Source: a virus
Length of the DNA stretch: 64,000 bases
Reading direction: 5' to 3' (one strand)
Virus record (IMG/VR): IMGVR_UViG_3300028597_000007
Shown: piece after piece, positions 1,732-63,195 of the stretch
How the letters are laid out: every line of letters starts with the position of its first letter
Position numbering within the stretch: the first letter of the stretch is position 1
Made by a program: the position numbers and the translations under genes
The notes under the pieces: model-generated
The model's input: the letters and a program-made list of their open reading frames with translations, nothing else
What the model was told of the DNA's origin: nothing
The model's database searches: none

Positions 1732-1761
1732 AGCCGCCCTCCGGGGCGGCTTTACTTATGC
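1732..1761 (+). terminator. GC hairpin followed by TATGC
   Basis: agccgccc-tccg-gggcggct, then TATGC at 1757-1761. Confidence 0.65.
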
Positions 1762-1791
1762 CCCAATTTACTTTTTATGGGAGATTAGGCG

Positions 1792-3300
1792 GTGGGACTA
1801 TATGCCTACGTTGTTGACCATAAGGAGATCCTCCAGACAATGGAAGAGCCTCCGATGGTGGTCAATGATCTCAACTTGGACTTCGGTACCAAAGAGGGCA
1901 AAGACCAGCTGGCCATGTACCTGTCGTTTCAATTCGACGGTGACGTGATTCCTGCGGTCCCAACCTGTCTGGGTGGCCACATTGGCGGTGAGGATAAGCT
2001 CGGCGTCAAGTGCAAGATCTGTGACACCCGTGTAGCCAACCTGGTTGATCGTGCAGTAGACCAAGGGGTATGGATTCGTCCGCCGGAAGGTGTGAAGGGA
2101 TTCATCAACCCTGAAGTCTGGAACGTGCTATCGCCACGGCTGACCCCGCTCAAGTCGTTCTCGATGATGAGCTGGGTGTGTGACCCCAACTACAGCGAAA
2201 CGCTGCCAGCGTACCAAGGCGTGCTCGAAGAGTACAAGAAGGTGCACAAGCGTGGTATGAACTACGTGCTGGAAAACTTCGATGAGGTAATCCGCTTCAT
2301 CATCACATCGAAGCTCTGTAGTAAGCTGTCGATGCAGGACAAGGCTGACATCCAGCTCTTCCTGCTGCAGAACCGCGACAAGGTAGTTCAGCAGTATCTT
2401 CCGCTGCCGAGTTCCATCTTCGTGGTTTCTGAAAAGACAGCGATGGGTACTTACGCCGACGAAAAGACGCCGGCGTTGTTGGATGCGATCTACATGATCA
2501 CCTCCACCTACGGTTCTGCCATTGCGCTGAACCAGCGTCAACGTGAATCGCACACAGCCCGGTTCATGGCTGCGATTGGTCCGTGTTACCAGAACATCTG
2601 TACCAAGTTCATCGGTAGCAAGTATGGTCTGATCCGTCGCCAGCTGATCGGTTCGCGTCTGCACTTCACTGGTCGTGGTGTAATCACCTCCATCAGCGAT
2701 GCGCATCATTACGAAGAGATCCACGTCCCATGGGCCTTCGCAGTGCAGATCCTCGAACCACACCTGCAATCCAAGCTGATGCGTCGCGGCATGTCTGCGA
2801 ACGAAGCGTTGGAGTTCCTCGAAGACCACACGCTGCAATGGCATCCACTGCTGCGCCAACTGTTCGACGAGCTGATTGCAGAAGCTCCACCGATCGACGA
2901 CTTCCCACCAGGGATCTTCGAAGATCTGGACGAAGACCCATCGCTGCTGCGTGGCATCCCATGCCTGTTCCAGCGTAACCCTTCGTTGACCCGCCTGTCG
3001 GCACAATGCTTGCGCATTACCCGAATCAAAGACGATGTCGAGGATTACACGATCTCGGTTTCGAACATGATCCTGGTGAGCTGGAACGCCGACTACGATG
3101 GCGACGAACTGAACATGCTGCTCTGCCTCGACAAGAAGATGCTGAGCTGGTTCAACCGTTTCCGTCCACACCTGGGCATGCGTTCGCTGAGAGAGCCACG
3201 CGCACTGTCCGACAACCAGAAAATCCACGCACCAGTAGCCGCCACCTGGGCGCACTACGTGCACCACTCTGAACGTAAGGCACCCCCAAGCGTTCATTAG
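1792..3300 (+). CDS. nvRNAP beta' N-terminal (catalytic) subunit, phiKZ gp55-like
   Basis: NADYDGDELN catalytic motif; GSRLHFTGRGVI and FQRNPSL match conserved beta' regions; N-terminal Cys cluster; GTG start with GGGAG RBS. Confidence 0.93.
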   Translation: MGLYAYVVDHKEILQTMEEPPMVVNDLNLDFGTKEGKDQLAMYLSFQFDGDVIPAVPTCLGGHIGGEDKLGVKCKICDTRVANLVDRAVDQGVWIRPPEGVKGFINPEVWNVLSPRLTPLKSFSMMSWVCDPNYSETLPAYQGVLEEYKKVHKRGMNYVLENFDEVIRFIITSKLCSKLSMQDKADIQLFLLQNRDKVVQQYLPLPSSIFVVSEKTAMGTYADEKTPALLDAIYMITSTYGSAIALNQRQRESHTARFMAAIGPCYQNICTKFIGSKYGLIRRQLIGSRLHFTGRGVITSISDAHHYEEIHVPWAFAVQILEPHLQSKLMRRGMSANEALEFLEDHTLQWHPLLRQLFDELIAEAPPIDDFPPGIFEDLDEDPSLLRGIPCLFQRNPSLTRLSAQCLRITRIKDDVEDYTISVSNMILVSWNADYDGDELNMLLCLDKKMLSWFNRFRPHLGMRSLREPRALSDNQKIHAPVAATWAHYVHHSERKAPPSVH

Positions 3301-3314
3301 TCAGGAGCAAATGC

Positions 3315-3692
3315 ATGAAACAGTTGGGCCCCATTCTGACCAGCGTCGTGCAGGAACAAACTGAACACCAGGACGCGTCCATCCAGGGCATGATCTCGGA
3401 AAGTGATGCAGTCAACTCCGTCATCGACGGCGTGACCATCGTTGTCCTGGAGAAGCTCGCCATGGCAACTGCTCTGGCCATTCCGATGGCACTGAGCGAT
3501 GGCAAGAAGGTCGACCTGAGTAAGATCCAACGGGGTCGAGTAAAGATTGTAGAAGGTCTGCTGGAAATGCTGGAAGGCCAGGAAGAACTCCTGGAATTCG
3601 TCGGCGAAGAGCAGGTCCTCGGTGACGCTGATGTGCTGGCCGCACTCCGCGAATTCATCGACTACAACACCCCAGAAAAGGAGGCAGCATGA
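3315..3692 (+). CDS. Hypothetical acidic helical protein
   Basis: AGGAG RBS, ATG start, phage-like codon usage, coupled to the next ORF. Confidence 0.75.
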   Translation: MKQLGPILTSVVQEQTEHQDASIQGMISESDAVNSVIDGVTIVVLEKLAMATALAIPMALSDGKKVDLSKIQRGRVKIVEGLLEMLEGQEELLEFVGEEQVLGDADVLAALREFIDYNTPEKEAA

Positions 3693-4126
3693 GTCTCGAA
3701 AAATACAGTACCCTGCACAAGTACGTGCAGCGTATCGCGGAAGATGACCTGTGCGAAGAGCAGGACGATGCCGCGGCAGTGGCCTACGGCGTAGGTCAAG
3801 TCGTGTGCGCGGTTGGCAACACCATCCAGGCCGCCGCCCAGCGCCTGTACAATGCCAACAACCCGGAAGCCGTGCAGAACTTCCATGCCGGGGTTAGCAT
3901 GATCGCTGACCATGTCAAGCAGATGGCTGAAGAAGTCAGTGAGATGGTTGCCCCATTCGCCGAAGTTACCGACGGCGTCATGGGCGGCGCACTGGCCAAT
4001 GAAGCCGCCATGTTCAACGACGGTGTCCACAACACCCTGCTGAACGAAGCACAGCTGTTCCTCAGCGAGCACCTCGTAGCTGAAGCGAACAAAACCCACG
4101 GCGAAGCGCCTAAGGAAGCACAATGA
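3689..4126 (+). CDS. Hypothetical acidic protein
   Basis: GGAGG RBS; ATGA overlap with the upstream ORF. Confidence 0.8.
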   Translation: MSLEKYSTLHKYVQRIAEDDLCEEQDDAAAVAYGVGQVVCAVGNTIQAAAQRLYNANNPEAVQNFHAGVSMIADHVKQMAEEVSEMVAPFAEVTDGVMGGALANEAAMFNDGVHNTLLNEAQLFLSEHLVAEANKTHGEAPKEAQ

Positions 4127-4548
4127 GCAAGAACCTGAGCAAGTACGCAGCACTGCATCGCCTGACCAACGAGCTGAACATCGAAGACCAGTCGAGCGAA
4201 GGCGCCCCGATGAGCGACGATCGCCGTGTCGTGGCTACCGTCGGCGCTGCTGTAATGACCCTGGGCATGGGTATGACCGAACTGGCCACCTCCAACGAAC
4301 TGCCAGAAGAGCAGGTTGGTAAGCTGCTGGAGCTGGCCGGCAATTTGGCCGTGCATACGGCCGTCGGTTTCGACACTCTGGTCGATATCGACAAAACCAG
4401 CATCGGCGTCAGCATCGCTGGCGACATCGCCCAGGATGTTGAAGGTGTTGACATCTTCACCATGGGTCTGCGTGAAGTGTCCAGCTACGTGGCCGAGCGC
4501 CCGAAGCCAATCCCGCTGGCCGAGCAAGCCGTGCCAGCAAGCGAGTAA
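4123..4548 (+). CDS. Hypothetical acidic protein, possible paralog of the upstream ORF
   Basis: ATGA overlap; N-terminus LSKYAALHR resembles LEKYSTLHK of the previous ORF. Confidence 0.8.
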   Translation: MSKNLSKYAALHRLTNELNIEDQSSEGAPMSDDRRVVATVGAAVMTLGMGMTELATSNELPEEQVGKLLELAGNLAVHTAVGFDTLVDIDKTSIGVSIAGDIAQDVEGVDIFTMGLREVSSYVAERPKPIPLAEQAVPASE

Positions 4549-4551
4549 GTT

Positions 4552-5193
4552 ATGAACCAGGTGATCTATGGAGACGAGGGCGCAATCAACGAGCTGGTGT
4601 ATGGCTCGCGAAGTGACGCCTTGATTACTGAGCTGAAGCAACAGATCAGTATTCAGAACCCAATGCTCACCGAACAAGGTCGACTGCATGCTCAGCACGC
4701 CCACCGGGTATTTGAAGAGGTATCCGGTTGGGATGTTGTCCGCGCTGCTCGTCGAGCAGTTGCAGCAGCAGAAGGCTATGTCCAGAGTAGTCAGATCGCA
4801 CTCTATGAGACGGTTGAGCAATTCCAGATGGCCCCTCCACGCCAACAGCGTTGGATCATGGCTCATCCAGAAACTCGCCGCCTGTTCCAAGACGGGCGCA
4901 TTGACGGCTACTCCGAATCTTACGTCGACATCCAGCCCGACGCCATTGGTCGTGATCATTACGATTACAGCCTGGCTATCCATGGCGTCACTCGTGGTTA
5001 CGAGTTCGTCAAGGAAGATGGTGAGGTTGAACTGATGTATGAGAATACTCAGATCAAGCGTGATCTTGCCAGCTGGGATGAACCCCTGTCGCAGCGTAAC
5101 ATTCTGGACATCGCCAGACTGCACCAAGTCCAAGACGGCTTCTGCAAAGAAGGCGCTGAAGACTTCACCAGTCGATTCGGTGGCACCATCTGA
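4552..5193 (+). CDS. Conserved chimallivirus hypothetical protein (possibly phiKZ gp59/Imp3 position)
   Basis: RWIMAHPETRRLFQDGRIDGYS recalled from core hypothetical proteins; position between gp55-like and SbcD-like genes. Homolog identity unverified. Confidence 0.6.
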   Translation: MNQVIYGDEGAINELVYGSRSDALITELKQQISIQNPMLTEQGRLHAQHAHRVFEEVSGWDVVRAARRAVAAAEGYVQSSQIALYETVEQFQMAPPRQQRWIMAHPETRRLFQDGRIDGYSESYVDIQPDAIGRDHYDYSLAIHGVTRGYEFVKEDGEVELMYENTQIKRDLASWDEPLSQRNILDIARLHQVQDGFCKEGAEDFTSRFGGTI

Positions 5194-5199
5194 AGTGAG

Positions 5200-5252
5200 A
5201 ATGAGGGCGGCCTTCGGGTCGCCCTCATTTTTATGACGTATCTTTTTTTTTT
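5200..5252 (+). terminator. UUCG hairpin, TATGA and offset T10 tract
   Basis: 13-bp stem 5200-5212/5217-5229, TTCG loop, T10 at 5243-5252. Confidence 0.75.
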
Positions 5253-5267
5253 GTCTCGGAGTAGACC

Positions 5268-5702
5268 ATGCCTACCAATGCCGTTGTGACGTTATCCTCC
5301 GATGGGTGGGTAACAGCGATTGACAAGAAGTGTGACCGCATTCTGATGAACGCGTTCGCCAGTGATTTCTCCCAGTCCAATATGTTTGTCGGACAGATCA
5401 CTTCCATTCAGCACATGATCTATGCCGCGGGCCAGGATGTAAACGGTGCAGGTACCACCATCGCCAACGCATTGGAGCGGCTCTACAATCGCTTCTTCGA
5501 TTCCGCTATCTTTAAGTGCACCGTCACTGCGTGGGGCGATAATAGCGGGAGATATGATTTAGCGATCCAAGGGACAGTGGCCCAAGCCGGTCGGAAGTAT
5601 GACTTCGGTCGCCAACTTTCTTCGGCTAACGGTAAGATTGTCCAGTTCCTAACCAAGACTGGGGAAGTGATATGGTCGAATCAGACGGTGACGGGGCTGT
5701 AA
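5268..5702 (+). CDS. Conserved hypothetical protein, possibly T4 gp25-like baseplate fold
   Basis: GGAG RBS; a helix-helix-beta pattern loosely like gp25 wedge proteins (inference). Confidence 0.55.
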   Translation: MPTNAVVTLSSDGWVTAIDKKCDRILMNAFASDFSQSNMFVGQITSIQHMIYAAGQDVNGAGTTIANALERLYNRFFDSAIFKCTVTAWGDNSGRYDLAIQGTVAQAGRKYDFGRQLSSANGKIVQFLTKTGEVIWSNQTVTGL

Positions 5703-6007
5703 AGACTATTAAGGTGGGCGTCATTGCTCACCACCATCCCAACACTACAACTAGCCTCGTGGTCTCTGCGCTAAGGGCAATGGAGAACGTTGAGGTAGTC
5801 GAGTTGGGGGAGAAAGACATCCTCTTTACCGAAGACGGTATCCGGGCCTCCATCAAAGACCTCGTGGATAAGTTCCCCGAGTCGTCACTGCACTGCGGGC
5901 TTGAACTCATCTCGCCGTATGCGGGGATGGGTCGTCGAGGTAAAGGTGAAAAGAAACGAGAGCGTGCGCATCTGCGCAGGTTCTATGGAAGGAGGAATTC
6001 ATTTTGA
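5672..6007 (+). CDS. Small hypothetical protein with basic C-terminus
   Basis: ORF fills the gap between neighbours and ends GRRGKGEKKRERAHLRRFYGRR. Start position uncertain. Confidence 0.6.
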   Translation: MVESDGDGAVKTIKVGVIAHHHPNTTTSLVVSALRAMENVEVVELGEKDILFTEDGIRASIKDLVDKFPESSLHCGLELISPYAGMGRRGKGEKKRERAHLRRFYGRRNSF

Positions 6008-6669
6008 ACGACCAAGACTTGCAGAAGCTCAACGAGCATCACAACGCCGTTGCGGCTGAGGCCGATAAGATGCCTGCTGGCCTGCCTTACTCGATGCGAG
6101 AGGCGCTGGCAGAGCTGAAGGTGGGCGAATTGAACTCTCTGGTGCGAGTACCTGAGAGCATCTTCGTACGTGACATCCTCCCAGCGCTGTGCGGTGAACT
6201 CGGCACGCTGGTGGATTTCAAATGGTGGGGGTTCCGCTTCGGTAGTCCGTACAAGGGCTTCCTGATTGTCAAAGACCACAACCAGAGCGAGGTGTTGTTC
6301 GAGGCACCTCCCCTACTTGACCGCAACTTCAAACTACGTCCTGCCCGCTCCCCTAAGGATACGGTGCGTGAGGCGGCGGCCAATTACCAGAACCGCGCCT
6401 ACAGTCGCCCGCACCAGGCCAAGAACGAGTTCAACGACGCCTTGCGTGGTCGCCTGGACTTCTCTGAAACTGGCCAGGCCCTGAAGTTCATGACCATGTT
6501 GGATAAGATCTTCATCCACTACGGAAAACCCTCTATCTTTGAGTCGATCACCGACCCAGCAGTTCTGGAAGCGGTTGGTCACGAAAAGATAGAGAGTCCT
6601 GCAACCGCCGGGACCGTTTCGACAGTCTACGACGAGCAGGCATATTCCGATGATGGACTCTACGATTAA
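6004..6669 (+). CDS. Hypothetical protein
   Basis: GGAGG RBS before a TTG start; 221 aa. Confidence 0.7.
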   Translation: MNDQDLQKLNEHHNAVAAEADKMPAGLPYSMREALAELKVGELNSLVRVPESIFVRDILPALCGELGTLVDFKWWGFRFGSPYKGFLIVKDHNQSEVLFEAPPLLDRNFKLRPARSPKDTVREAAANYQNRAYSRPHQAKNEFNDALRGRLDFSETGQALKFMTMLDKIFIHYGKPSIFESITDPAVLEAVGHEKIESPATAGTVSTVYDEQAYSDDGLYD

Positions 6670-7831
6670 CATCGCCAGTGTCAGCGATGTTCACATGGGG
6701 CACCCCCGCACCCCGACGCAGTTGATCGCTGACAACTTCCGCAAGCACGTCCTGCCGGATAACGCAGTCACTGCCCAGCTGGATGTCCTGAACATCTGTG
6801 GTGATTTCTGGGACCGACTACTGAACTTACCAGAGGAAGAAGTATACATAGCCCGCCAGCTGATCGTGTACATCCTCCTTATCTGTGCCAAGTACGGTAT
6901 CATTCTGCGTGTTCTGGAGGGCACTCCCCGCCATGACCGCAAGCAGTCGAAGATCTTCCAGGAATTGATCGACATTCTCAATCTGGATATCGATTACAAG
7001 TACATGGACGGCTGCCAGATCGAGTACATTGAAAAGCTCGACAAGCATGTCCTGTACATCCAGGATGAGTACGAGACGCCAGAGGTTGCACTGGCAGAGT
7101 TTCGTCGTCTGTTGGCTGAACGTGGCCTGGAGAAAGTTGACTGGGCAGTGATGCATGGTCAGTATGAGTTCCAACTGCCGGACATTGGTAACGCTCGACA
7201 CAAGTGCCATGACTCCCGTGCCTACCTTGCACTGGTGCGGTACTTCATCTTCATTGGCCACGACCACACCCATTCCACATTGGAGCTGCCTGAGTTTAGC
7301 AGCATCATTTGTGCGCACGGTTCTTGTGATCGTTTGGCACATGGCGAGGAAGAGCCTAAAGGCCACGTACGAGCGCGTATCGAGCCCGATGGTAGTAGGA
7401 CACTCACGTTCGTCGAAAACACCGATGCGATGGACTACAGGACCTTAGACGTGGCAGGACTCTCGACCGATGAGGTGATTGTTCTGATCCGTGCACAAGA
7501 GCTGCGCGACGGCAGCCACATTCGTCTTAAGGGTGACATTTTTGACAAGGGGCTGCGGATGATTCGTCATCTGCGTAAAGACTTCCCACAATACCGTCTT
7601 GAGCCTTTCCCGGTCAAAGAGAAGAAGCGAGAAACTGAGCAGGTTGTGCAAATCTCCTCTCGGTATCTCCCCGTGCAGTTCGGCCCATCCAACATCACTT
7701 CGTTGACAATGGATTGGTTGGCGCGCAATGGGTATTCTGAAACGGAGATCAAGGATTGTGAGGATCACTTGAATGAGCAAATCAACGCAGGCACTCGCCA
7801 GCAGGGAGCAAGGGCAGTTCCCGATTTCTAA
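6650..7831 (+). CDS. SbcD/Mre11-like metallophosphoesterase nuclease
   Basis: Calcineurin-like motifs SDVH, GDFWD, GTPRHD (GNHD position), MHG and GHDH. Confidence 0.88.
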   Translation: MMDSTINIASVSDVHMGHPRTPTQLIADNFRKHVLPDNAVTAQLDVLNICGDFWDRLLNLPEEEVYIARQLIVYILLICAKYGIILRVLEGTPRHDRKQSKIFQELIDILNLDIDYKYMDGCQIEYIEKLDKHVLYIQDEYETPEVALAEFRRLLAERGLEKVDWAVMHGQYEFQLPDIGNARHKCHDSRAYLALVRYFIFIGHDHTHSTLELPEFSSIICAHGSCDRLAHGEEEPKGHVRARIEPDGSRTLTFVENTDAMDYRTLDVAGLSTDEVIVLIRAQELRDGSHIRLKGDIFDKGLRMIRHLRKDFPQYRLEPFPVKEKKRETEQVVQISSRYLPVQFGPSNITSLTMDWLARNGYSETEIKDCEDHLNEQINAGTRQQGARAVPDF

Positions 7832-8636
7832 GGGCACCAGTTACGCAATCGAGTCTCTGGTAAACATGCACCCGGATCGGGAGAAGATCAAGCCCGAACC
7901 GTTGTCGCAGATCGATGTGTTGTTGGTCAACATTCGTACGTTGTACCGCAACATGTTGGGCGGCTTGAAAGCGGCTGTGAAAGAGCAGGTACAGGCAGTG
8001 GACATCCCTGACTTCCTCTTTCAGGAAATGCAGCAGGTGCGTGCCGCGGTAGACAAGATCGGTCATGGCAGGGTGCAGGTGTTCTTCTACCTCTGCACCT
8101 ATCCTGACCTGAAGAAACATTTCCCCAAGGCCAACCTGATTGAACCCACAACGCTCAAGCAGAAGGCTGCCAAGGCAATGGAGGATCAGGTGATCGCTGC
8201 CATGGTGGCGAGTCCTCAACTGTACGGCTATCCAAAGATCTTCGAGTACACCGTGGAGGGTGGTAAGCTTGAGAACGAACGGGTGGCTCTGCTGACCCAC
8301 CTCCCCCTGGACTTGGTAAATCGCTACCAGTTCAAGGAGATGTATTTGCTAGAGAGCAACACTGGCGCATTCAAAAAGCCCAGCGAGTTCAATAGCAAGT
8401 TCAAGGTGAAACCAGAAGGCACGCACCTCCCCTTCTCGGCGTTCACCCTGCAGATCTTTGGCGACGGTGGGAAGATGTTTATGCCCATGGCGTCTGAGAT
8501 TACGAATTCCGTAGCGGAGCTGGCGAGGAAGAATCGCTGGACTCCACTGACCACTGCCGAGAAGATCAGGTACAACCTGGACAACTCGCAGGGCAACAAG
8601 TTTTCAGGTTTCCTGAAGGCATTACTGCGCGAGTAA
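7773..8636 (+). CDS. Conserved chimallivirus hypothetical protein (phiKZ gp66 position)
   Basis: 287-aa ORF between the SbcD-like and ChmC-like genes. Confidence 0.75.
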   Translation: MSKSTQALASREQGQFPISKGTSYAIESLVNMHPDREKIKPEPLSQIDVLLVNIRTLYRNMLGGLKAAVKEQVQAVDIPDFLFQEMQQVRAAVDKIGHGRVQVFFYLCTYPDLKKHFPKANLIEPTTLKQKAAKAMEDQVIAAMVASPQLYGYPKIFEYTVEGGKLENERVALLTHLPLDLVNRYQFKEMYLLESNTGAFKKPSEFNSKFKVKPEGTHLPFSAFTLQIFGDGGKMFMPMASEITNSVAELARKNRWTPLTTAEKIRYNLDNSQGNKFSGFLKALLRE

Positions 8637-8700
8637 AACGTAACCGGATCAGGTTATTGTTTGAAGGCCATGACCCCAAATTTTCACTAGGAGCAACACC

Positions 8701-9447
8701 ATGTCTGGTGGCAACGAATCCCGTGTCAACATTCCAACCGCACTGATCGAATTCCGTCTGCGCCTCACCGCCGACAAACTTCCAGAAGGTCGTAAGAACC
8801 CGAACCTGGAAGTCAGCGTCAACAAGAAGAACGAGATCCAGATCAGCTGCAACACCGGTATCTTCGGCGCCGACAATGCCCAGGTGCGCATCGATGGCAA
8901 GCTGGGTCTGCTGGACTTCAACGCCCTGCACACCTACGTGGAGAACATCCACAAGGAAGCCGCCGGCCACAAGTACCCGCTGATCCGTCTGTACGGCCCG
9001 CGCAAGAAGCGCACCCCGCAGGATTCCGGCAAGGGTCTGGACGCAGTGCTGATCGTCGGCAAAGATGCCAACGGCGTGTGCTACATGTCCGTCATGCGCA
9101 AAGATGCCCCGCAGGTCAAGTTCGTGTTCCAGCCAGGCCGTTGGGTTGACCTGGTCGATGCCAACACCCAGCAGCCTCTGCCACTGGCCGACATCTCCAA
9201 CCTGTACTCGCAGGCCTGGGCCAAGACCTTCGCCCCTCTGGTCACCTACGCGCTGAATGTCAAGGTCTACGACTTCCGCGAAGACAACCAGCAAGGTGGC
9301 AACGGCGGCGGTAACAACTACCAGAACAACGGCGGTAGCAACAACAACTACCAGAACAACAACCGCGGCGGTGGTCAGCAACAGCAGCAACAAGCTCCTG
9401 CACCGGCCGGCGACTTCAACGGGTTCGATGACGACATCCCGCTGTAA
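8701..9447 (+). CDS. chmC: ChmC-like nucleic-acid-binding protein with N/G/Q-rich tail and SSB-like acidic tip
   Basis: AGGAG RBS; directly upstream of the gp68-like and PicA-like genes; disordered tail ending FDDDIPL; high-expression codon bias. Name assigned by synteny. Confidence 0.7.
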   Translation: MSGGNESRVNIPTALIEFRLRLTADKLPEGRKNPNLEVSVNKKNEIQISCNTGIFGADNAQVRIDGKLGLLDFNALHTYVENIHKEAAGHKYPLIRLYGPRKKRTPQDSGKGLDAVLIVGKDANGVCYMSVMRKDAPQVKFVFQPGRWVDLVDANTQQPLPLADISNLYSQAWAKTFAPLVTYALNVKVYDFREDNQQGGNGGGNNYQNNGGSNNNYQNNNRGGGQQQQQQAPAPAGDFNGFDDDIPL

Positions 9448-9460
9448 TTGCTTTTGAAAA

Positions 9461-9494
9461 AAACGGTGGGCCAGGAATGGTCCTCCGTTTATGC
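9461..9494 (+). terminator. GGAA-loop hairpin followed by TATGC
   Basis: aaacgg-t-gggcca-ggaa-tggtcc-t-ccgttt, then TATGCTGTCG. Confidence 0.6.
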
Positions 9495-9514
9495 TGTCGT
9501 CTAGGAAATGACGA

Positions 9515-9541
9515 TTTTTGAAACCTAAATTATCAAGTTGA
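9515..9541 (+). promoter_or_regulatory. Putative early (virion-RNAP) promoter motif
   Basis: TTTTTGAAACCTAAATTATCAAGTTGA, identical to 57705-57731. Confidence 0.65.
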
Positions 9542-9592
9542 GATCCTCCCCAAAAGGAACTCTAGATCGACAACAAAAGGAGTCATCGCTTT

Positions 9593-11116
9593 ATGGAGAT
9601 CCAAATTGAAGGTTACTCTCCAACAGGCGCCTTCAAGCGAGTGGCTACCGTGCATAACGGTGAGTCCATTTCGTGGAACACGCAGACTTATTCCAAGCTG
9701 AAGTTCCACAATGCGGCTGTGATCTTTTCGGAGATCAATGCGCTCTGGGCTACGCTACCCATGGCAGCTCAGGACAAGATCTTCGCGGCGTACAAAGAGG
9801 TCCATCAACACCTCACTGAACCTGAGGATAATAAGCAGCAGGTCGAAAGGCTCATGGTGCTTATCGTTGAGATCTACAAGCACTACACGGCCAAAGATGC
9901 CGAGGATATCGTCAATGGGTTGAACCTGACATATCCAAGCTCGATGGCTGAGACCTACGGCGACAGTGGCGACAACGGGCGTACCCATACCCGTGCCGAC
10001 TACCATCGCCTGGTCCAACTGGCAATCCGGCTGCGCCCCATGTTGCCGGTGTTCGGCCAGTACATTCATACGTTCCTCGACCAACCGGGCTCGCAATACC
10101 GTGAGACCAGTGCGGTCAAGATCCTGAACGATACGGACGTACTGACCATGCCAGCGGTGGAGAAGTTGGTAAGTTTCATGGAGGCAACTCTGAAGAACTT
10201 CCAGCATCAGAACTCCGCCATTCTGGGAGGGAAGCTGGGTACTGCAGAAATGCCTTACTGGCTGGTCGCCAAGGCAATCTTCCGCAGGATCGCACCCGGC
10301 GAAGTACACAGCGTGGACGATGTATCTTCCATCATCACCAACGTGTACAACTTTGTGGTGAAGTCGACCCTCGACTCCATCCCCAGGAACTTTGGTGGCA
10401 CCAAAAACAAAACCCGCACCACAGAAGGTTCGAACAAAGACGAGAACGTTTCCTTGCTGGAAGCGATTCGAATCCGTGAGCAAATCTCTGGCGGGCGTAA
10501 GAAAGTGGTTGACGTGTATTCGCGTAACATCCTGTTCACAGCGCGTCGGGTAGATCCGACCGTGCCTGAGGCCATGGTGGAAGAATGCACCCGACCAGAC
10601 ATCACCAGACTGAACCGTGACGTGCATGAAGTGCAGTCGATCATGGCGCGTTGGGTAATGTCGCGAGGCCAGCCACCGTCGCACTATGACCTGCTCAAGC
10701 GCGAGCCGGTGTTCCGCTTCCTCGGGGCTGCTCAAGCCCTGCTCTGGCACTGGGGCTACCTGGAGCTGGCTGCATTGATGGATGCGGTTCCCCTGCAAGA
10801 CCTGACCATGGCTCCCTCGGCCACGCTGTGGGCACGAGAAGAGCTTAGCAAGGATCGTCTGGAACTGCTACGTGAGCGGTATCCACACGTGTCGCAACTG
10901 ACCCGCGGTAGCCAGAATCCCGATGAGGCTATCAAGGGTGTCGTGGAGAACGCAGAGCTTGCTCGCATGATCCACAGTGAAGAATGGGTCCTGGCAAAAG
11001 ACTCTCGGTTCTACGATCTCGTGAACCACAATGAGCAAGGACATCTGATCCTGTCCCCAGGCTTTAGAAACACCATCGCAGACCTGCAGCTTCAAGTATC
11101 TGCTGGTACGTGGTAA
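9593..11116 (+). CDS. nvRNAP fifth (promoter-specificity) subunit, phiKZ gp68-like
   Basis: 507 aa; AGGAG RBS; position between ChmC-like and PicA-like genes. Assigned by synteny and size. Confidence 0.7.
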   Translation: MEIQIEGYSPTGAFKRVATVHNGESISWNTQTYSKLKFHNAAVIFSEINALWATLPMAAQDKIFAAYKEVHQHLTEPEDNKQQVERLMVLIVEIYKHYTAKDAEDIVNGLNLTYPSSMAETYGDSGDNGRTHTRADYHRLVQLAIRLRPMLPVFGQYIHTFLDQPGSQYRETSAVKILNDTDVLTMPAVEKLVSFMEATLKNFQHQNSAILGGKLGTAEMPYWLVAKAIFRRIAPGEVHSVDDVSSIITNVYNFVVKSTLDSIPRNFGGTKNKTRTTEGSNKDENVSLLEAIRIREQISGGRKKVVDVYSRNILFTARRVDPTVPEAMVEECTRPDITRLNRDVHEVQSIMARWVMSRGQPPSHYDLLKREPVFRFLGAAQALLWHWGYLELAALMDAVPLQDLTMAPSATLWAREELSKDRLELLRERYPHVSQLTRGSQNPDEAIKGVVENAELARMIHSEEWVLAKDSRFYDLVNHNEQGHLILSPGFRNTIADLQLQVSAGTW

Positions 11117-11143
11117 GCAATTTCAAATTTAGGAGTTAGGCAT

Positions 11144-12757: not shown

Positions 12758-12766
12758 GGGGTAACC

Positions 12767-14122: not shown

Positions 14123-14124
14123 CG

Positions 14125-14155
14125 GCATACTCCCCCGCCTTAACCGGCGGGGGAG
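14125..14155. terminator. Hairpin at convergent junction, TATGCCG on the minus strand
   Basis: TAA-CGGCATA, then ctcccccgcc-ttaacc-ggcgggggag. Confidence 0.7.
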
Positions 14156-14171
14156 ATTTATCACCTAGTTA

Positions 14172-14522: not shown

Positions 14523-14553
14523 AGTTGATTTCCTGCAGTAAGGGAATTTCAGA

Positions 14554-14571
14554 CCTAAAGTATCTAGGTGA
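14554..14571 (+). promoter_or_regulatory. Putative early promoter motif
   Basis: CCTAAAGTATCTAGGTGA matches CCTAAAnTATCnAnnTGA, upstream of the nvRNAP beta gene. Confidence 0.6.
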
Positions 14572-14647
14572 AGGTTATACAACCTCAATTGCTGTTAGGC
14601 TTTGTCTATGACGATTACTTCCGTCGTTGTCGACAAAAGGAGATAAG

Positions 14648-16750: not shown

Positions 16751-16755
16751 CCTGA

Positions 16756-18747: not shown

Positions 18748-18758
18748 CAGGTGACTGC

Positions 18759-50891: not shown

Positions 50892-50940
50892 GCGAACTCC
50901 TCTCTACGGGCCTCTGTGGGGCTCGTAGAGGGCTTTATGC
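50886..50940. terminator. Hairpin flanked by GCATA and TATGC
   Basis: ctctacgggcc/ggctcgtagag stem (50902-50930); TATGC 50936-50940. Confidence 0.7.
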
Positions 50941-50964
50941 CATTGGATATTAAAGTATCTCAAG

Positions 50965-50982
50965 CCTAAACTATCCATGTGA
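50965..50982 (+). promoter_or_regulatory. Putative early promoter motif
   Basis: CCTAAACTATCCATGTGA matches the consensus; a second half-site TAAAGTATCT lies just upstream. Confidence 0.6.
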
Positions 50983-52977: not shown

Positions 52978-52979
52978 CG

Positions 52980-53039
52980 GCATAGTAGCCTCCCTCCCAC
53001 CTTCGGGTGGGAGGGGGTTATGCCACCATCTTTTTTTTT
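52980..53039. terminator. Bidirectional UUCG hairpin with GCATA/TATGC and offset T9
   Basis: Stem 52990-53001/53006-53017; TATGC 53019-53023; T9 53031-53039. Confidence 0.8.
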
Positions 53040-55249: not shown

Positions 55250-57568
55250 ATGAACGTGTTTTCCCTGGCAGGTGGCGCAAGCGCGCCCCTGGACACTCTG
55301 ATCCAAAGCTTCAACAACTCCTTCACGCACCGCGCTGCTGAGCTGAAGGACAGCCGTCTGACCAAAGGCCTGACCATGGCCGTTGAAAGCCTCGACGAAT
55401 CGACCAAGGCCTCGCTGACCGCTTCCCTGGGCAGCATCCGTCAGATGGTGATCGAATCGTTCGAAGGCGTGCCAGGCGTGAACCTGGGCCACATGGGCGA
55501 TCCGATCGCTGCCTCCGGCGAAGAAGCCGGTACTCAAGTTGGCGCTGATACCGCCGGCCTGAACGAAAACCAGCTGCAGGCTGCTACTGCCGTTGCAATG
55601 GCTTTCGCTGACCCTGAAGGCTACGCCAAGGCCGCGACCAACACCGCGACCCTGCCAGGCACCCAAGGTGTTGCCATGGCTTCCGAAGGTATCGGCGGCC
55701 AGCTGCAACACTTCAAAGAAACCGTCATGGCTACCGAGGCGTTCTCCGAACAGCCGCTGCGCCAGATGATGGGCTGGTCCGTTACCCTCGCTGCCGCGAA
55801 CGCCCGTCAGGACGCCTTCGCCGAAGCCTGGTTCCCGACCACCGTTCTGACCCCTGCCGACATGGGTCTGACCCTGACCATCGCTCGTTCGATGATCGTC
55901 AACACCCCGATCCACCAGCTGGACGGCGCGCCGAACAACCTCGGCCGTGTGAACCTGATCGACGCCGCTCGTCACCCAGAACTTCTGGAAGACGAATCGA
56001 CCCGTATCGTGCCGGTGGTTCCGCAGGACGTCAACGCCCCTGCTCGCAAGTTCCTGGTCGACGGCTACGCCTCCTGGCAAGTCGACATCGACGGCTTCAA
56101 GGTGCCGACCGCGCCTCTGGCCTTCGGTGAAGTCGGCCTGATCAACATCTCGACTCCGAACCACATGGCCCAACAGGGCGTGATGGAACTGACCGACGCC
56201 GTTGGCCAGGGCGCTCGCCTGGACTTCCTGGTTGCCAAGCTGGGCACTGACTTCATCAAAGTCAACGTCCGCAACCTGGCTACCTCGGGCTTCCTGCCTG
56301 CACAAGAAGGTGAAGCACCTCGCCAAGTCCTGAGCTTCGACGCTCGCGACCTGCCGATCCATGCTGGCACCAAGACCGCTTCGGGCGCCGCTCTGAACTG
56401 GCCGGAAGTTGTCGACAACAACCTGACCATCCGCTACGCCGTGGATGTGACCGGTTCGCTCGACCTGCAGACCTCGATCGCCCGTGTGAACGGTTCGATC
56501 ATCGGCATCAGCGCAATCCTCGACGCCGAAGGCAACGAAATCACCCTGGAAGACGGCATCGGTAAAACCGTGGCCGACAAGTTCAAGGCTGACTTCAAGC
56601 TGGTTGGCTGGTATCCGTTCGCCGTTCGTACCAACGAGAACAAACGCCAGCTGGGCAAACTGCTCGACGTCCTGGAACAGCGCTACTGCTACGGCATCCC
56701 GCTGACCGCACCGATCTCGGTTCCTGCTCCTGTTGGTTCGGCCAAACCGGCTCAGAACCTGGAAGCCCTGATCTCCGCACAGCGCCGCCGCTGCTCGAAC
56801 GCCGCGATCACCACCCTGATCAACCACGCTGGTCTGCTCGCAGACTACATGGCCGGTCAGCGTCGCAAAGGCACCATGCCACAACTCGGTTCGATCGGCC
56901 GTCTGGTCGTTCATCCGTTCTACGAGAAGCGCGTGATCGACGCCGCCGCTGCCGTGCAGACTCTGCGCGACAACGACAAGGCGCTGGACATCGCTGCTCT
57001 GCTCACCAACACCATCAAGGACCTGGCAGCCGACATGCTGATCCAGTCGGCATACCCTGCCGCTCTGGAAGCTTCGCTGACTGGCTCCAAGTCGGTGAAA
57101 CTGCTGGTCGGTACCGACATCAAAATCGGTCAGCACCTGCAAGTGGTTGGTGACCTGCGCACCTTCGGCCCGATGTTCAGCAACATGACCGTCGTGACCA
57201 CCCTGAACAAGAAGATGGACGGCCGGGTCTTCCTGACCCTGACCCGCGACAGCGAGTCGAACGTGCCTGACGTCCTGCAGTTCGGCTGGCACGCCTTCAT
57301 GCCTGAGCTGGTGTCCGTGGTTCAGGTGAGCCGTAACGGTAACACCCGTCAGGAAGCGACCGTGCAGTCCCGCTACCTGCACATCTGCAACCTGCCTATC
57401 CTGGCCGAAATTGAAGTGAAGAACCTGTCTCAGGCTCTCTACAACAAGTCGGCCATGCGTGTGGACCTGACCCAGGAGTCGGAGTTTCCCGGTGGCACTG
57501 GCGGCGGTACTGACCCAGACGCAGGTGGTGGTACCGATGGCGGCGCTGGTGCTGGCACCGGCGGCTAA
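55250..57568 (+). CDS. Major capsid protein (phiKZ gp120-like)
   Basis: 772 aa; extreme codon bias; propeptide with AVE, ASE and ATE sites; DnaB-gp119-MCP synteny. Confidence 0.85.
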   Translation: MNVFSLAGGASAPLDTLIQSFNNSFTHRAAELKDSRLTKGLTMAVESLDESTKASLTASLGSIRQMVIESFEGVPGVNLGHMGDPIAASGEEAGTQVGADTAGLNENQLQAATAVAMAFADPEGYAKAATNTATLPGTQGVAMASEGIGGQLQHFKETVMATEAFSEQPLRQMMGWSVTLAAANARQDAFAEAWFPTTVLTPADMGLTLTIARSMIVNTPIHQLDGAPNNLGRVNLIDAARHPELLEDESTRIVPVVPQDVNAPARKFLVDGYASWQVDIDGFKVPTAPLAFGEVGLINISTPNHMAQQGVMELTDAVGQGARLDFLVAKLGTDFIKVNVRNLATSGFLPAQEGEAPRQVLSFDARDLPIHAGTKTASGAALNWPEVVDNNLTIRYAVDVTGSLDLQTSIARVNGSIIGISAILDAEGNEITLEDGIGKTVADKFKADFKLVGWYPFAVRTNENKRQLGKLLDVLEQRYCYGIPLTAPISVPAPVGSAKPAQNLEALISAQRRRCSNAAITTLINHAGLLADYMAGQRRKGTMPQLGSIGRLVVHPFYEKRVIDAAAAVQTLRDNDKALDIAALLTNTIKDLAADMLIQSAYPAALEASLTGSKSVKLLVGTDIKIGQHLQVVGDLRTFGPMFSNMTVVTTLNKKMDGRVFLTLTRDSESNVPDVLQFGWHAFMPELVSVVQVSRNGNTRQEATVQSRYLHICNLPILAEIEVKNLSQALYNKSAMRVDLTQESEFPGGTGGGTDPDAGGGTDGGAGAGTGG

Positions 57569-57656: not shown

Positions 57657-57688
57657 AGGGCAGGCCTTCGGGCCTGCCTTTATGCCGT
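57657..57688 (+). terminator. UUCG hairpin followed by TATGCCGT
   Basis: agggcaggcc-ttcg-ggcctgcctt; TATGC 57681-57685. Confidence 0.78.
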
Positions 57689-57704
57689 CGTGTTGGAATA
57701 ACCT

Positions 57705-57731
57705 TTTTTGAAACCTAAATTATCAAGTTGA
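57705..57731 (+). promoter_or_regulatory. Putative early promoter motif
   Basis: Identical 27-mer to 9515-9541; upstream of the operon containing nvRNAP beta-N. Confidence 0.65.
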
Positions 57732-59043: not shown

Positions 59044-60663
59044 ATGAACGCACAAATGCTGGCAATTATGGCTGCGGGTACACCGCCCATCAACCCAGAC
59101 ATTGCTAACGGCATTGCAACCATTCAGGTCAAGACGGCGGAATCGTACATTGACCGGGATTTGCGTGCCTGTTCGGAGCAGTTGCCGGAAGGTATCCGCT
59201 ACGAAAACTATCGCCGCTGCACTCCGATGGAGGAGTACAAAATCCTTCATCAGAAGAAGGAGAAGAACTACGTTGAGCTTTCCCGCTCGGACATGTATCT
59301 GATCGAGGCGAACTTCTCGCTTCACGGACGTCCACTGGAAAGCCGCCCCATGTACATGCCATTCGTGGGGGACGCTGGTATCATGCACATCCGGGGAACG
59401 CCGTATTCGGTGAACCCCGTCATCGGTGACGTAGCAGTGAGCGTCACCCGTGGTGGTCTGTTCGCATGGCTGGGCCTGACCAAGGTTCAGTTCTATCGCA
59501 TGAACTACCACTTCGAAACCGATGGCAAAATCCAGGGTGCGTCTGTGGCGCACTCTAACCTGTACCACCGCAGCACCAAGTCGAAGGCAGCGAAGGTTGG
59601 CAAGAACAGCCTGCGCTCCACGCTGGTGCACTACATGCTTTGCCGGATGGGTCTGACCGAGATGCTCACCAAGCACTTCAAGTGCTCGGAGGTTCTGATC
59701 GGCGACAAAGACGTGATCAACTATGATCGCGTAGATCCTGAACAGTGGCTCATCTGCACAACAGGTGGTCACGGCGGTCACTTGAAGGTGCCTATGGATT
59801 ATGTCCCTAGTCGCCTCGCCATCGCGATCCCTCGCGCTGAAGTGACTGCAGATCAGATCGATGCCATCTGCGGTGTGTTCTATGTGGTGGACACGTATCC
59901 AGAAGCGGCCACTGAGCAGTACGTGGAAAATCCACACATGTGGCAGCGCCTGATGGGTCGCATCATCTTCGGTGATTCCATGAACGAAGGTGAGCGGATG
60001 ATCCTGCTGCGCGAGCACTTGATCTCCATCGATGGTTACGTGAACTATCAGTCGCGCAGAACGCTGCACCAAGGCGGGATCATGGTTGAAAACATCCATG
60101 ACTTCTTCGCTTGGGTTGTACGCGAGTTGCCAGTGTTGATCGCAAGTGCACCTACGGAAGTAGCGTCGCTCTACGGCAAACGACTGATGACTGTGCGTTA
60201 TCTGCTTAAGGACATTAGCCGGTCCATCTACCTGCTCATGTTCAGGCTGCGTGCGCAGTACAACAAGCGGGGTCGTCTCTCGGAGAAAGAGATTCGCGAT
60301 GCAATGCGTAAAGGCCTACTGCGTGACCGCATCACTGTGGTAAACGTTGGCCACGCTGAGGTATCGACCGTTTCCTCTCCAGGCGACAACAAGATCTTCA
60401 AGATCACCTCGACAGCGGTACTGCAAGAGAACACCGATAGTCCAAAAGGCAAGGGCGGCGGCGGTAGCTTGAATGACCCATCCAAGTTCATTCACACCTC
60501 CGTTATCGAGTTCTGCAGCTACTGTGCAATGGGTAAGAACGAACCTACTGGTCGTGGTAAGTTGGGCACGCATGCCATTACCAACGAACGTGGTGACCTC
60601 ATTCGTAACCCTAAGTACATCAACCTCATGGAACATACGCAACATCTCCTGACGCGCATGTAA
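59044..60663 (+). CDS. nvRNAP beta N-terminal subunit (phiKZ gp123-like)
   Basis: YMPFVGDAGIMHIRGTPYSVNPVI aligns with the RpoB LPLMT..GTFVINGTERVIVSQ region; synteny. Confidence 0.82.
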   Translation: MNAQMLAIMAAGTPPINPDIANGIATIQVKTAESYIDRDLRACSEQLPEGIRYENYRRCTPMEEYKILHQKKEKNYVELSRSDMYLIEANFSLHGRPLESRPMYMPFVGDAGIMHIRGTPYSVNPVIGDVAVSVTRGGLFAWLGLTKVQFYRMNYHFETDGKIQGASVAHSNLYHRSTKSKAAKVGKNSLRSTLVHYMLCRMGLTEMLTKHFKCSEVLIGDKDVINYDRVDPEQWLICTTGGHGGHLKVPMDYVPSRLAIAIPRAEVTADQIDAICGVFYVVDTYPEAATEQYVENPHMWQRLMGRIIFGDSMNEGERMILLREHLISIDGYVNYQSRRTLHQGGIMVENIHDFFAWVVRELPVLIASAPTEVASLYGKRLMTVRYLLKDISRSIYLLMFRLRAQYNKRGRLSEKEIRDAMRKGLLRDRITVVNVGHAEVSTVSSPGDNKIFKITSTAVLQENTDSPKGKGGGGSLNDPSKFIHTSVIEFCSYCAMGKNEPTGRGKLGTHAITNERGDLIRNPKYINLMEHTQHLLTRM

Positions 60664-60690
60664 CCAGTATTTAAGTAAAAGGACACAAGC

Positions 60691-63069
60691 ATGTACAGCG
60701 GAAATCTGCCGTTTCCACCCGATCAGATCATCAGCGGCAACTGGTTCGATGACCCGTTCAGTGCGCAGCTCCCGGTACCGGTGATGGCGATCATCCAACA
60801 GAATCCGAACCTGCAGTGGGTTCAGGCTCTGGTGGCAGCCGTACTGGTAGGCGATCTGCAACAGAACTGCCAAAGCGGGCCGGTGAGCGCATTTGCGTAC
60901 AACCTGTTCTCCAACAACCGCTACAACAACGAACCGTGGATGTTGGTAATGGACGGTGGTGTGCAGTTCGCCTTTGGCCAACTGCGCATGAACCAGCAAG
61001 GCGATCCTCGCCAAGTTGTCAGTCAAGCAACCGTGTTCTACGCAACCTATGCAACAGCGGCCTGCGTTGAGCGCTTCCCTGAACTGCGCAACTGGATGCA
61101 ACCGCATCAGGTTCAGCGCTGCATGGAAGTGATCCAGCGCTACCGCGCAATGACCGGTGGTGTTGCTGGCGCTGGTGGTGGTCATCAGCCTCAGCAATAC
61201 GCCAGCGGCCATGTGAGCAACATCATGTCGCCTACTGGCGGTGCTGGTGCTCATGCTTTCAACATGCTGCACATGGAGGAGAACTCCAAGTTCGGCAACC
61301 CTAACCGCGGTCGAGCGGTGCCTTTGGGGCGTGAACCTAAAAACGAGCCCGATCAGGCTCTCAAGAATCTGGGAGTGACTGAAGTGAGCGACATCGGCCG
61401 CAACACCCAACAACCAGTGCAGGGCGAGCCGCAGCAAGCACAGCCAGCCTACACGCCTCCGGTCAATCGTCCGCGTGCACGTCCAGTGCCGATCGGTCAA
61501 CCGACCCCAGGCACCATTCAACCAGTGCTCGAAGGCGAGCTGCAACCAGCCGGCCAGGTACACGAGATTCCCACTGGTCAGCCTGCGCCACAAGCCTACG
61601 CCGCGCCTCCGGTTGCACAGCGCGTTGAAATCCCACAGCAGACGCTGGACACTTCGCTCAGCGTGAGCAACGATATCCCTGCACTCGATGTACTGGGTGT
61701 GTCGGATGCCGAGTGGGGCGATGTGCCTGAGCACCACAAAGAAGTACCTGTGGCGCAATTCGGCAATGTGCAACCAACCGAGCAAGCCCGCGACGATTAC
61801 CAGGTCCACGCAAGTGGCCGCTTCATGGTGCGTCCGCAGCATCTCGATGTGGTTCTGCCGCAGACCCGCGAAGAAGCTCAGCTGGAAGAGGTGGAAGATC
61901 TGGAGGTCATCGAGATCGCCAGCCTGCCTACCGAAGGCGACTTCACCGTGCTGGAACTGGAAGATGGCAACGTGGCTGTTCTCACCACTGGCGACGATGT
62001 TGGTCGTACCTGGTCCGAGAGCAATCCGCACAACTATCCTTTCAACCCGATCACCCACCAACGTTACCTCGTACAAGTCTCCGACGATGTTCGCTACGAG
62101 GCGTTCCTGCCGCGAGACCCAGACGTGGATTACGAAGACCTGGAATTCGATGTCGCCAAGCGTACCAAGGCGAAACAGCTGCGCCTGTCCGATCAGCACA
62201 TCCTCGCCGACCTCTCGGTCATCACCGAGATCGTCCCAGCAGGTGCGCCGTACACGATCATCCACGCCAACGAAGAGCTGGCCAAAGCGGCTCAAGACGA
62301 AGACCAAGGCAAGCAACTGGAAGCTGTTGAGAAGTTCCAGGGCAAGCTGACCTTCTTCGACGGCGTGACCGAGAACTCCAACCTGCGTGAAGAGCTGTAT
62401 CGCCTCGACCTGTTCTTCGATCAAGTCAAAGCGCGCAACGCAGTGGCCGTGTCGTACTTCAGCCAAGAGACTCGTTTCGTGGCGTATGGCATGTCCACCA
62501 AGGTCAGCAACCTGATGACCTCGCAGCACGCCGACCGCGTCGCCAAGATGTGGCTGTTCCTCAACGATCTGGCCACGGCCTGTCCGCGTGGTTTCCTGTT
62601 CATCGACAAGCTGATGACCGACGGCGTGAATCGCCTGCTGGGCAAAGCTTGCGGCATCACCGAGTACGACATCAAATCCTTCGCCGAAGAGTACCACGAA
62701 CTCAACGAGATCGTGGAGAAGGAATACGGCGTAGTGGCGACTGAGAAGCTGCAGGCTGCCGCAAACGAACTGGCCTTGGGCCTGTCGATCTCCACCACCG
62801 GTGTAGATCTGGTTGTGAAGCAAACCTTCGCGGTAGTTGGATTGCCCGTAGGTCTGGCAAGCTTCGATTTGGCGCTCACGTCTGGGGAGATGTTTGTGAC
62901 CACTTCGGTTCAAGCTCCAGAGCTGAACGCTTTGTTGGATGAAGCAAAGAAAGACCAGGCACGACCAAAGTACATCAACACCTACCTGAGCGGCCGCGAC
63001 GGCGAGGTGTACGAGGTTGTGGAATCCCTTTGGGACGACGCGTTCAAGATGCTGGTGGCTGCTAAGTAA
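60691..63069 (+). CDS. Large conserved hypothetical protein with central P/Q-rich disordered linker
   Basis: AAGGA RBS; 792 aa. Confidence 0.75.
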   Translation: MYSGNLPFPPDQIISGNWFDDPFSAQLPVPVMAIIQQNPNLQWVQALVAAVLVGDLQQNCQSGPVSAFAYNLFSNNRYNNEPWMLVMDGGVQFAFGQLRMNQQGDPRQVVSQATVFYATYATAACVERFPELRNWMQPHQVQRCMEVIQRYRAMTGGVAGAGGGHQPQQYASGHVSNIMSPTGGAGAHAFNMLHMEENSKFGNPNRGRAVPLGREPKNEPDQALKNLGVTEVSDIGRNTQQPVQGEPQQAQPAYTPPVNRPRARPVPIGQPTPGTIQPVLEGELQPAGQVHEIPTGQPAPQAYAAPPVAQRVEIPQQTLDTSLSVSNDIPALDVLGVSDAEWGDVPEHHKEVPVAQFGNVQPTEQARDDYQVHASGRFMVRPQHLDVVLPQTREEAQLEEVEDLEVIEIASLPTEGDFTVLELEDGNVAVLTTGDDVGRTWSESNPHNYPFNPITHQRYLVQVSDDVRYEAFLPRDPDVDYEDLEFDVAKRTKAKQLRLSDQHILADLSVITEIVPAGAPYTIIHANEELAKAAQDEDQGKQLEAVEKFQGKLTFFDGVTENSNLREELYRLDLFFDQVKARNAVAVSYFSQETRFVAYGMSTKVSNLMTSQHADRVAKMWLFLNDLATACPRGFLFIDKLMTDGVNRLLGKACGITEYDIKSFAEEYHELNEIVEKEYGVVATEKLQAAANELALGLSISTTGVDLVVKQTFAVVGLPVGLASFDLALTSGEMFVTTSVQAPELNALLDEAKKDQARPKYINTYLSGRDGEVYEVVESLWDDAFKMLVAAK

Positions 63070-63137
63070 GCAGTCAAACTAACCCCTCCCTATCAACCAC
63101 TGACAACCCCGGTGACAACCAAGAGCGCCTAATAAGC

Positions 63138-63195
63138 GCATAGAGTCCAGGCCCACCGGGGGCCTGGACTCCACTTATGCCTCTATTTTTTTTTT
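63138..63195. terminator. Bidirectional hairpin with GCATA/TATGC and offset T10
   Basis: gagtccaggccc/gggcctggactc (63143-63171); TATGC 63176-63180; T10 63186-63195. Confidence 0.8.

Follow-up and report, generated by a model that had tools for sequence, protein, structure and literature searches.

Hairpin-TATG elements at gene ends of a new phiKZ-like jumbo phage are very probably terminators of the class mapped in phiKZ and 201phi2-1

Transcription termination in phiKZ-like jumbo phages has been mapped at the level of RNA 3' ends. In phiKZ, 133 termination regions were mapped by ONT-cappable-seq, and 61 terminators mapped in this way carry the motif BCCYCCCCHWWDGGGRRGGBYTTATKYYGT, a stem-loop followed by TTATKYYGT (Putzeys et al. 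2024, microLife 5:uqae002, PMC10914365). In 201phi2-1, motif A, a hairpin followed by CTTTATGYYGT, is present at 59 sites, an added motif B elongates the hairpin, and the authors tie the longer stem to stronger termination (Microb Biotechnol 2024;17:e70037, PMC11512511). In addition, 15 of the 132 termination sites of 201phi2-1 are bidirectional, and eight such terminators proved active when assayed with a reporter trap in uninfected P. chlororaphis, six of them at least as strongly as lambda T0 (PMC11512511). Here we describe a recurrent element, a GC-rich hairpin followed by TATG, in the whole 64,000-nt stretch of IMG/VR record IMGVR_UViG_3300028597_000007 (the window, to which all coordinates refer). 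These elements are very probably transcription terminators of a phiKZ-like jumbo phage, of the class mapped in phiKZ and 201phi2-1, whose form is a GC-rich RNA hairpin and, 0-3 nt downstream of it, (U)UUAUGCCGU. The initial annotation of the window had proposed a terminator or 3'-end signal specific to phage RNA polymerase (RNAP) and had taken it for undescribed. The element is instead a new example of a published class, and its specificity for a phage RNAP is doubtful, since the eight 201phi2-1 terminators work in uninfected cells (PMC11512511).

The window contains 13 strong intergenic GC hairpins (-18.6 to -37 kcal/mol, z scores of -3.3 to -6.8 against dinucleotide shuffles), and 12 of them have TATG, as tTATGCCGT, 0-7 nt from the stem on at least one strand. 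On the + strand TATGC lies at 1757, 9490, 21418, 27518, 37644, 45865, 50936, 53019, 57681 and 63176, with TATGA at 5232, and the reverse complement GCATA lies at 14125, 21378, 27482, 50886, 52980 and 63138. The coordinates listed in the initial annotation all proved correct, as did the five genes that end in a stop codon plus CGGCATA (14122, 21375, 27479, 52977 and the minus-strand gene at 37651) and the exceptions to the pattern, namely 14130 with the motif on the minus side only, 18759 without it, and the tandem junction at 50902 with both flanks. At 37612, given as CATA in the initial annotation, the minus strand reads GTATGTTAC, with TATGT instead of TATGC.

TATGC is depleted over the window, with 51 copies on both strands against 76.9 +/- 9.3 in shuffles, and 18 of the 51 start in intergenic DNA, which totals 2,251 nt or 3.5% of the window; by our tally, 16 of these adjoin a hairpin. 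At hairpins TATGC is enriched: the 15 strongest offer 30 oriented sides, of which 12 carry it where 0.16 would be expected, and it was found beside none of the 19 hairpins inside coding sequence in the window. Anchored on TATG, 18 oriented copies give the consensus t-TATG-C-C-G-T-y-A (C 16/18, C 13/18, G 11/18, T 12/18); the form tTATGCCGT fits the phiKZ motif, and the window tail consensus TTATGCCGT matches TTATKYYGT exactly. A GC-rich stem-loop stands directly 5' of the tail, TTAT-K-Y-Y-G-T follows 0-3 nt past the stem, and the elements sit at gene 3' ends and in both orientations at convergent pairs, as in the published class. The stable tetraloops remarked on earlier are indeed frequent, with UUCG in 5 of 13 loops and GCAA in 2 of 13 (partly by eye).

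The comparison was extended to G001, a complete IMG/VR genome of 231,724 bp that is collinear with the window and shows 69% protein identity to it (a single gene used as probe). In G001, TATG stands beside 36 of 58 hairpins with a folding free energy (dG) <= -12, and the commonest distance between stem and tail is 0-2 nt in each of the window, G001, phiKZ, RAY and FLC9. Loop orientation, with UUCG or GNRA on the motif strand, is supportive in G001, RAY and FLC9 and is confounded in phiKZ, where many apparently one-sided sites have TTATT on the other side. The candidate terminators of the window are the following.

1732-1764, + strand: after the nuclear-shell (chimallin) gene; hairpin 1732-1751, TTATGCCCC at 1756-1764; one-sided; z -3.4; nearly identical in G001.
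5199-5252, + strand: closing the gp55-like RNAP operon; hairpin 5199-5230, TTATGACGT at 5231-5239, T10 at 5243-5252; z -6.8; TATGA and T-run kept in G001.
9457-9497, + strand: after gene 8701-9447; A7 tract, hairpin 9464-9487, TTTATGCTGT at 9488-9497; z -4.4; the G001 counterpart has another hairpin and the same ATTTATGC tail.
14122-14164, minus strand: convergent junction; hairpin 14130-14155, minus-side TATGCCGT (14129-14122), + side TTTATCAC (14157-14164); TATGC on the minus side only, + side TATCAC conserved in G001; stem rewritten and flanks kept there.
18759-18798, + strand: after the gp71-74-like non-virion RNAP (nvRNAP) genes; hairpin 18759-18778 (outer stem to about 18790), T7 at 18792-18798; without TATG.
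21376-21434, both strands: two-sided, convergent junction; CGGCATAG, hairpin 21384-21411, TATGC 21418-21422, T10 21425-21434; z -5.3; stem replaced and flanks conserved in G001.
27480-27524, both strands: two-sided, convergent junction with the minus-strand DNA polymerase gene; CGGCATAA, hairpin 27488-27513, TTTATGCTG at 27516-27524; z -6.6; compensatory stem changes in G001.
37612-37652, both strands: two-sided, convergent junction; CATAC, hairpin 37617-37643, TATGCCGTT at 37644-37652, minus side as given above; z -5.8; in the relative, C-G replaces U-A at a single pair, a compensatory change.
45839-45871, + strand: after an internal-head-protein-like gene; hairpin AAAGCCGGGCC uucg GGUCCGGCUUU, TTTTATGCCG at 45862-45871; one-sided; z -5.8; no orthologous site found in G001.
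50884-50941, + strand: tandem junction, both flanks; CGGCATAA, hairpin 50900-50931, TTTATGCC at 50934-50941; z -6.0; G001 lacks the upstream copy, which in the window overlaps the stop codon.
52978-53039, both strands: two-sided, convergent junction with the minus-strand DnaB-like helicase gene; CGGCATAG, hairpin 52992-53015, TTATGCC 53018-53024, T9 53031-53039; z -5.7.
57659-57688, + strand: after the major head gene; hairpin 57659-57678, TTTATGCCGT at 57679-57688; z -6.1; compensatory stem changes in G001.
63136-63195, both strands: two-sided, convergent junction; GCGCATA, hairpin 63143-63171, TTATGCC 63175-63181, T10 63186-63195; z -6.0; one pair swapped, G-C to C-G, in G001.

A start signal and an end signal can be told apart only at convergent and divergent junctions. 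In the window the element is present at all six convergent junctions, five of them two-sided, and at none of the five divergent ones; in G001, by our own crude gene calls, hairpin plus TATG is present at 19 of 21 convergent junctions (15 two-sided) and at none of 21 divergent junctions. These counts identify a 3'-end signal and, together with 201phi2-1 RNA 3' ends that fall inside the motif, uphold the role in termination or 3'-end formation that had been proposed. Moreover, at the orthologous sites 14130, 21384, 27488, 37617, 57659 and 63143 the stems are compensatorily changed or rewritten in G001, whereas the flanks ACGGCATA and TTATGC are unchanged. Covarying stems, fixed flanks and UUCG or GCAA loops speak for an RNA hairpin with a fixed tail rather than a mobile repeat.

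How the transcript is released, and which of the two phage polymerases responds, we infer as follows. The phage multisubunit RNAP would transcribe the stem and then a weak UUAU stretch, the hairpin would form in the exit channel, and release would leave an RNA ending in ...UUAUGCC-3', about 7-8 nt beyond the stem and 1-2 nt beyond the G of TATG. In the eight published 201phi2-1 sites whose sequences we fetched, the RNA end indeed lies 1-2 nt past the G of TAT(G/A) and 7-8 nt past the stem (8/8). Termination would then be of the intrinsic type, with a short, interrupted U-tract plus a conserved GC-rich tail. At convergent junctions a single hairpin would serve both directions, and because it serves both convergent transcripts the tail is found on both strands (ACGGCATA ... 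TATGCCGT); since the two tails are complementary, the stem is lengthened as well, so that stronger termination and an RNA paired right up to its 3' end are to be expected. These two uses of two-sidedness, bidirectional termination and stem lengthening, are compatible with each other. In its make-up, the upstream complement in the window corresponds to the stem-elongating motif B of 201phi2-1, and by our reading an ACGRCATA-type complement lies upstream of the stem in several of the fetched 201phi2-1 sites. The comparison with that phage covers motifs A and B of its published motifs A-E.

Several observations weigh against this explanation. The 3' ends in this phage are assigned by homology to the relatives in which RNA ends and termination activity were shown, and the 3' ends obtained by ONT-cappable-seq do not wholly distinguish termination from processing. 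The hairpins at 18759, 32452 and 43036, at tandem junctions or gene ends, have no tail, and five sites carry an extra T-run that is superfluous to the model. In addition, the conserved G and T past the mapped 3' end are unaccounted for by an RNA-only model; the conservation of ATGCCGT, including bases past the mapped RNA end, suggests that the sequence is read as DNA or by the polymerase.

As to the hairpins without a TATG tail, the one at 32452-32481 lies at a gene end and leads directly into the ribosome-binding site of a 1,246-aa gene, and the one at 43036-43054, also at a gene end, spans a stop codon and shows compensatory changes in G001, from CCCGAC/GTCGGG to CCCTAC/GTAGGG. Both may be attenuators or translational elements.

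A reading of the tail by the polymerase has a possible precedent in the late promoters of phiKZ, which depend on a TATG core whose G is +1 (PMC4666361). The phiKZ nvRNAP reads this TATG from the non-template strand by means of a pocket in its beta-like core subunit, GP123. The GP123 homologue of the window keeps seven of the 14 TATG-pocket residues identical (S144, F151, K158, K190, H331, S334 and Q466), and two more, H185->Y and Y406->F, keep aromatic stacking. By analogy, it is possible, if somewhat unlikely, that the terminator TATG is read during elongation by the same GP123-type non-template pocket that sets the late-promoter start. The polymerase, on meeting TATG 1-6 nt past the hairpin, would be held in a sequence-specific pause, and 1-2 nt of further scrunching would be followed by hairpin-driven release at G+2. 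If true, one four-base word would mark both start and stop for the non-virion polymerase. According to the authors of the structure, the GP123 pocket is incomplete in the transcribing complex, which weighs against such a reading.

The same likeness to the late promoter, with the same four bases and a GP123 homologue encoded in the window, raises the possibility of a dual element, in which the hairpin-side TATG would also act as an nvRNAP late promoter with +1 at G, restarting tandem genes and producing antisense RNA at convergent junctions. Antisense RNAs have been reported for phiKZ, according to a citation in PMC11077065, and at tandem junctions the placement expected of a late promoter and that expected of a terminator are indistinguishable. 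However, TATG alone is insufficient for promoter activity (PMC4666361), and the distribution in the window is that of a gene-end and not a gene-start signal: the motif is missing from all divergent junctions, where promoters must lie, and at convergent junctions it has no gene to express. Moreover, no hairpin precedes the model late promoter P119L, so that the hairpin is not part of the late-promoter architecture, and TATG without a hairpin shows only a small sense bias upstream of genes in G001 (41 sense versus 29 antisense). A dual element therefore seems unlikely, and nothing in this analysis requires antisense initiation from TATG.

It is also rather improbable that the tail serves, instead of termination, RNA 3'-end processing, stability or nuclear export, as a signal read post-transcriptionally by a protein or nuclease. 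The tail is more sequence-specific than a U-tract, a fully paired 3' end at two-sided sites should resist 3' exonucleases, and chimallivirus mRNAs must exit the phage nucleus, all of which would suit such a signal. However, the conserved G and T lie past the mapped 201phi2-1 3' end and hence outside the mature RNA, and the 201phi2-1 elements block a downstream reporter in uninfected cells (PMC11512511). The RNA-binding protein ChmC was considered as the reader of the tail and rejected, because its enhanced crosslinking and immunoprecipitation (eCLIP) data gave no motif and placed its binding near start codons (PMC11077065). Finally, DNA-level palindromes, whether bound by a dimeric protein or belonging to a mobile repeat like repetitive extragenic palindromes or miniature inverted-repeat transposable elements, are scarcely credible: the two-sided copies do form near-perfect inverted repeats whose outer arms (ACGGCATA / TATGCCGT) are conserved, but the stems are unrelated between copies and covary between orthologues, the tail is on one strand only at 6 of 13 sites (1732, 5199, 9457, 14122, 45839 and 57659), two phages just 69% protein-identical have the elements at the same, syntenic gene ends, RNA-type tetraloops are frequent, and a search of Rfam matched no family.

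The tail is not confined to the window lineage. The scan of relatives suggested by the initial annotation found the same layout in G001, and a per-genome count of TTATGYYGT against its reversed control gave the following numbers.

phiKZ: motif 35, control 15.
201phi2-1: motif 41, control 12.
PhiPA3: motif 46, control 16.
Erwinia RAY: motif 20, control 7.
Burkholderia FLC9: motif 19, control 5.
EL: motif 3, control 9.
Vibrio Aphrodite1: motif 7, control 10.
Salmonella SPFM22: motif 1, control 11.
Bacillus AR9: motif 3, control 12.

The motif is thus enriched in phiKZ, 201phi2-1, PhiPA3, RAY and FLC9 and not in EL, Aphrodite1, SPFM22 or AR9. The enrichment of hairpin-anchored 5-mers agrees with these counts in the genomes where it was run: the top hairpin-side 5-mers are TTATG/TATGC in phiKZ, RAY and the window lineage, CTATG/TATGC in FLC9, and TTATT/TTTAT, without the G, in EL. 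According to this pattern, the tail is a trait of one family branch, whose polymerases are closest to those of the window, and it suggests that the tail co-evolves with one branch of phage polymerases.

Coding regions were also compared with synonymous-codon shuffles. In the window and in G001, TATG/CATA is about 2-fold depleted there, and these are the most depleted TA-containing 4-mers tested (ratio about 0.48 in G001, z -17 and -10). The avoidance is weakly specific, as related TA-containing words are also low (0.6-0.85).

By its proteins, the window belongs to a new chimallivirus, that is, a phiKZ-like, nucleus-forming jumbo phage. Its GC content is 55%, megablast against 50,697 phage records gave no nucleotide match, and the best protein matches among known phages (PhiPA3, phiKZ relatives and Burkholderia FLC9) reach only 34-36% amino-acid identity, with RNAP proteins at most 36% identical. 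The window has the split multisubunit RNAPs of a phiKZ-type genome, as evidenced by Pfam RNA_pol_Rpb2_6 and phrogs 2987, 3295, 3015 and 2943. The genes concerned are these.

2-1540: nuclear shell protein (chimallin), phrog_4795.
1840-3300, 14648-16750, 16792-18747 and 59044-60663: split multisubunit RNAP (beta/beta' type).
27517-29268, minus strand: DNA polymerase.
53043-54590, minus strand: DnaB-like helicase.
55250-57568: major head protein.
59044-60663: phiKZ GP123 homologue (beta-like subunit), 26% identity, phrog_2943.

Between the nuclear-shell gene and its terminator lies a 190-nt non-coding stretch (1541-1731), part of which is strongly conserved in G001. In PhiPA3, eCLIP peaks of ChmC were reported between chmA and the next gene (PMC11077065). 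The stretch may therefore correspond to a small RNA with its 3' end at the 1732 terminator.

Two further features accompany the terminators. Runs of T>=7 number just five in the 64-kb window (5243-5252, 18792-18798, 21425-21434, 53031-53039 and 63186-63195); each stands on the + strand, 8-17 nt downstream of a terminator hairpin, the next base is usually G, and they are conserved at the orthologous sites of G001. A 25-nt AT-rich motif, TTT[GC]A[AG]ACCTA[AG]AYTATC(A)AnnTGA, is found at 9520, 14550, 50961 and 57710, and its copies span the following positions.

9512-9540: AT-rich motif (identical to the copy at 57710 over 17 nt).
14542-14570: AT-rich motif.
50953-50981: AT-rich motif.
57702-57730: AT-rich motif.

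In G001 there are 15 intergenic copies of this motif on the + strand. It often lies 23-44 nt past a terminator, it precedes the nvRNAP gp71-74-like and GP123-like operons, and it resembles the ATATTAC and ATATCAT elements past phiKZ and 201phi2-1 terminators. The nvRNAP-subunit operons are early genes in phiKZ, and the motif is probably an early promoter, used by the virion polymerase. At 14542-14588, the early-type promoter of the + strand nvRNAP operon overlaps, face to face, the 5' end of the minus-strand gene 14172-14588, which is real, with 72% amino-acid identity to its G001 counterpart.

T-run terminators tend to close operons opened by the early-type motif (11/14 versus 21/110, Fisher p = 1.6e-5), a link confounded by strand, as all T-runs and all but one promoter are on the + strand, and + sides alone give an odds ratio of about 4.7 (calculated by hand). 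As the U-tract of an outer, extended stem, the T-run fits four of the five window sites and 3-4 of 10 in G001, a mixed result, and in phiKZ a comparison of TTAT-T and TTAT-G tails against a crude early-promoter core was not significant (p = 0.16). The T7-10 runs might be a second tier serving the virion polymerase. For this phage, the element is a map of transcription-unit ends and, together with the early-type promoter motif, outlines the operons.

Compared with a canonical intrinsic terminator, a GC hairpin with a U-tract of 7-9 nt, the elements share the hairpin, the expected release about 7-8 nt past the stem, and an A-rich 5' flank that pairs with the U-rich tail (A7 at 9457; AUAAAA at 45839), and the versions in relatives stop host RNAP. 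They differ in that the U-tract is just UUAU, followed by the conserved GCCGU (tails UUAUGCC), and that true T-runs, where present, are found 8-17 nt past the inner stem. An uninterrupted U-rich tract (>=5 U in 8 nt) directly past the stem is thus lacking in the window, and a consensus terminator scan of 1-20000 recovered only 1732 and an alternative stem at 18772. In the literature examined we found no biochemical study of termination by the sigma-less split polymerases, and the conserved tail offers an experimental handle on it.

The closest likeness is to the mapped phage terminators. For 201phi2-1 there are experimental 3' ends and in vivo terminator-trap data, whereas the window offers sequence only. 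With respect to phiKZ, in which TTATT or TTATGTT is frequent, the window shows G at every K of the motif (the exception being TATGT on the minus side of 37617) and CC at most YY positions; GC content is 37% in phiKZ against 55% in the window, the RNAPs are at most 36% identical, and the window terminators are known from their sequence alone. Nevertheless, the gene ends of both carry a GC-rich stem-loop, in which the 5' arm is often rich in C and the 3' arm in G, and then TTAT-K-Y-Y-G-T, and both have bidirectional terminators between convergent genes; phiKZ DNA itself shows hairpin plus TTATG, one- and two-sided, including where convergent genes meet and behind the major head gene. Site 57659, after the major head gene, is the positional counterpart of the gp120 terminator, and the major-head terminator, an early-type promoter and gp121-123-like genes follow in the same order in phiKZ and in the window. 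A nine-base tail has thus been kept across phages whose polymerases are at most 36% identical and whose GC contents lie 18 points apart.

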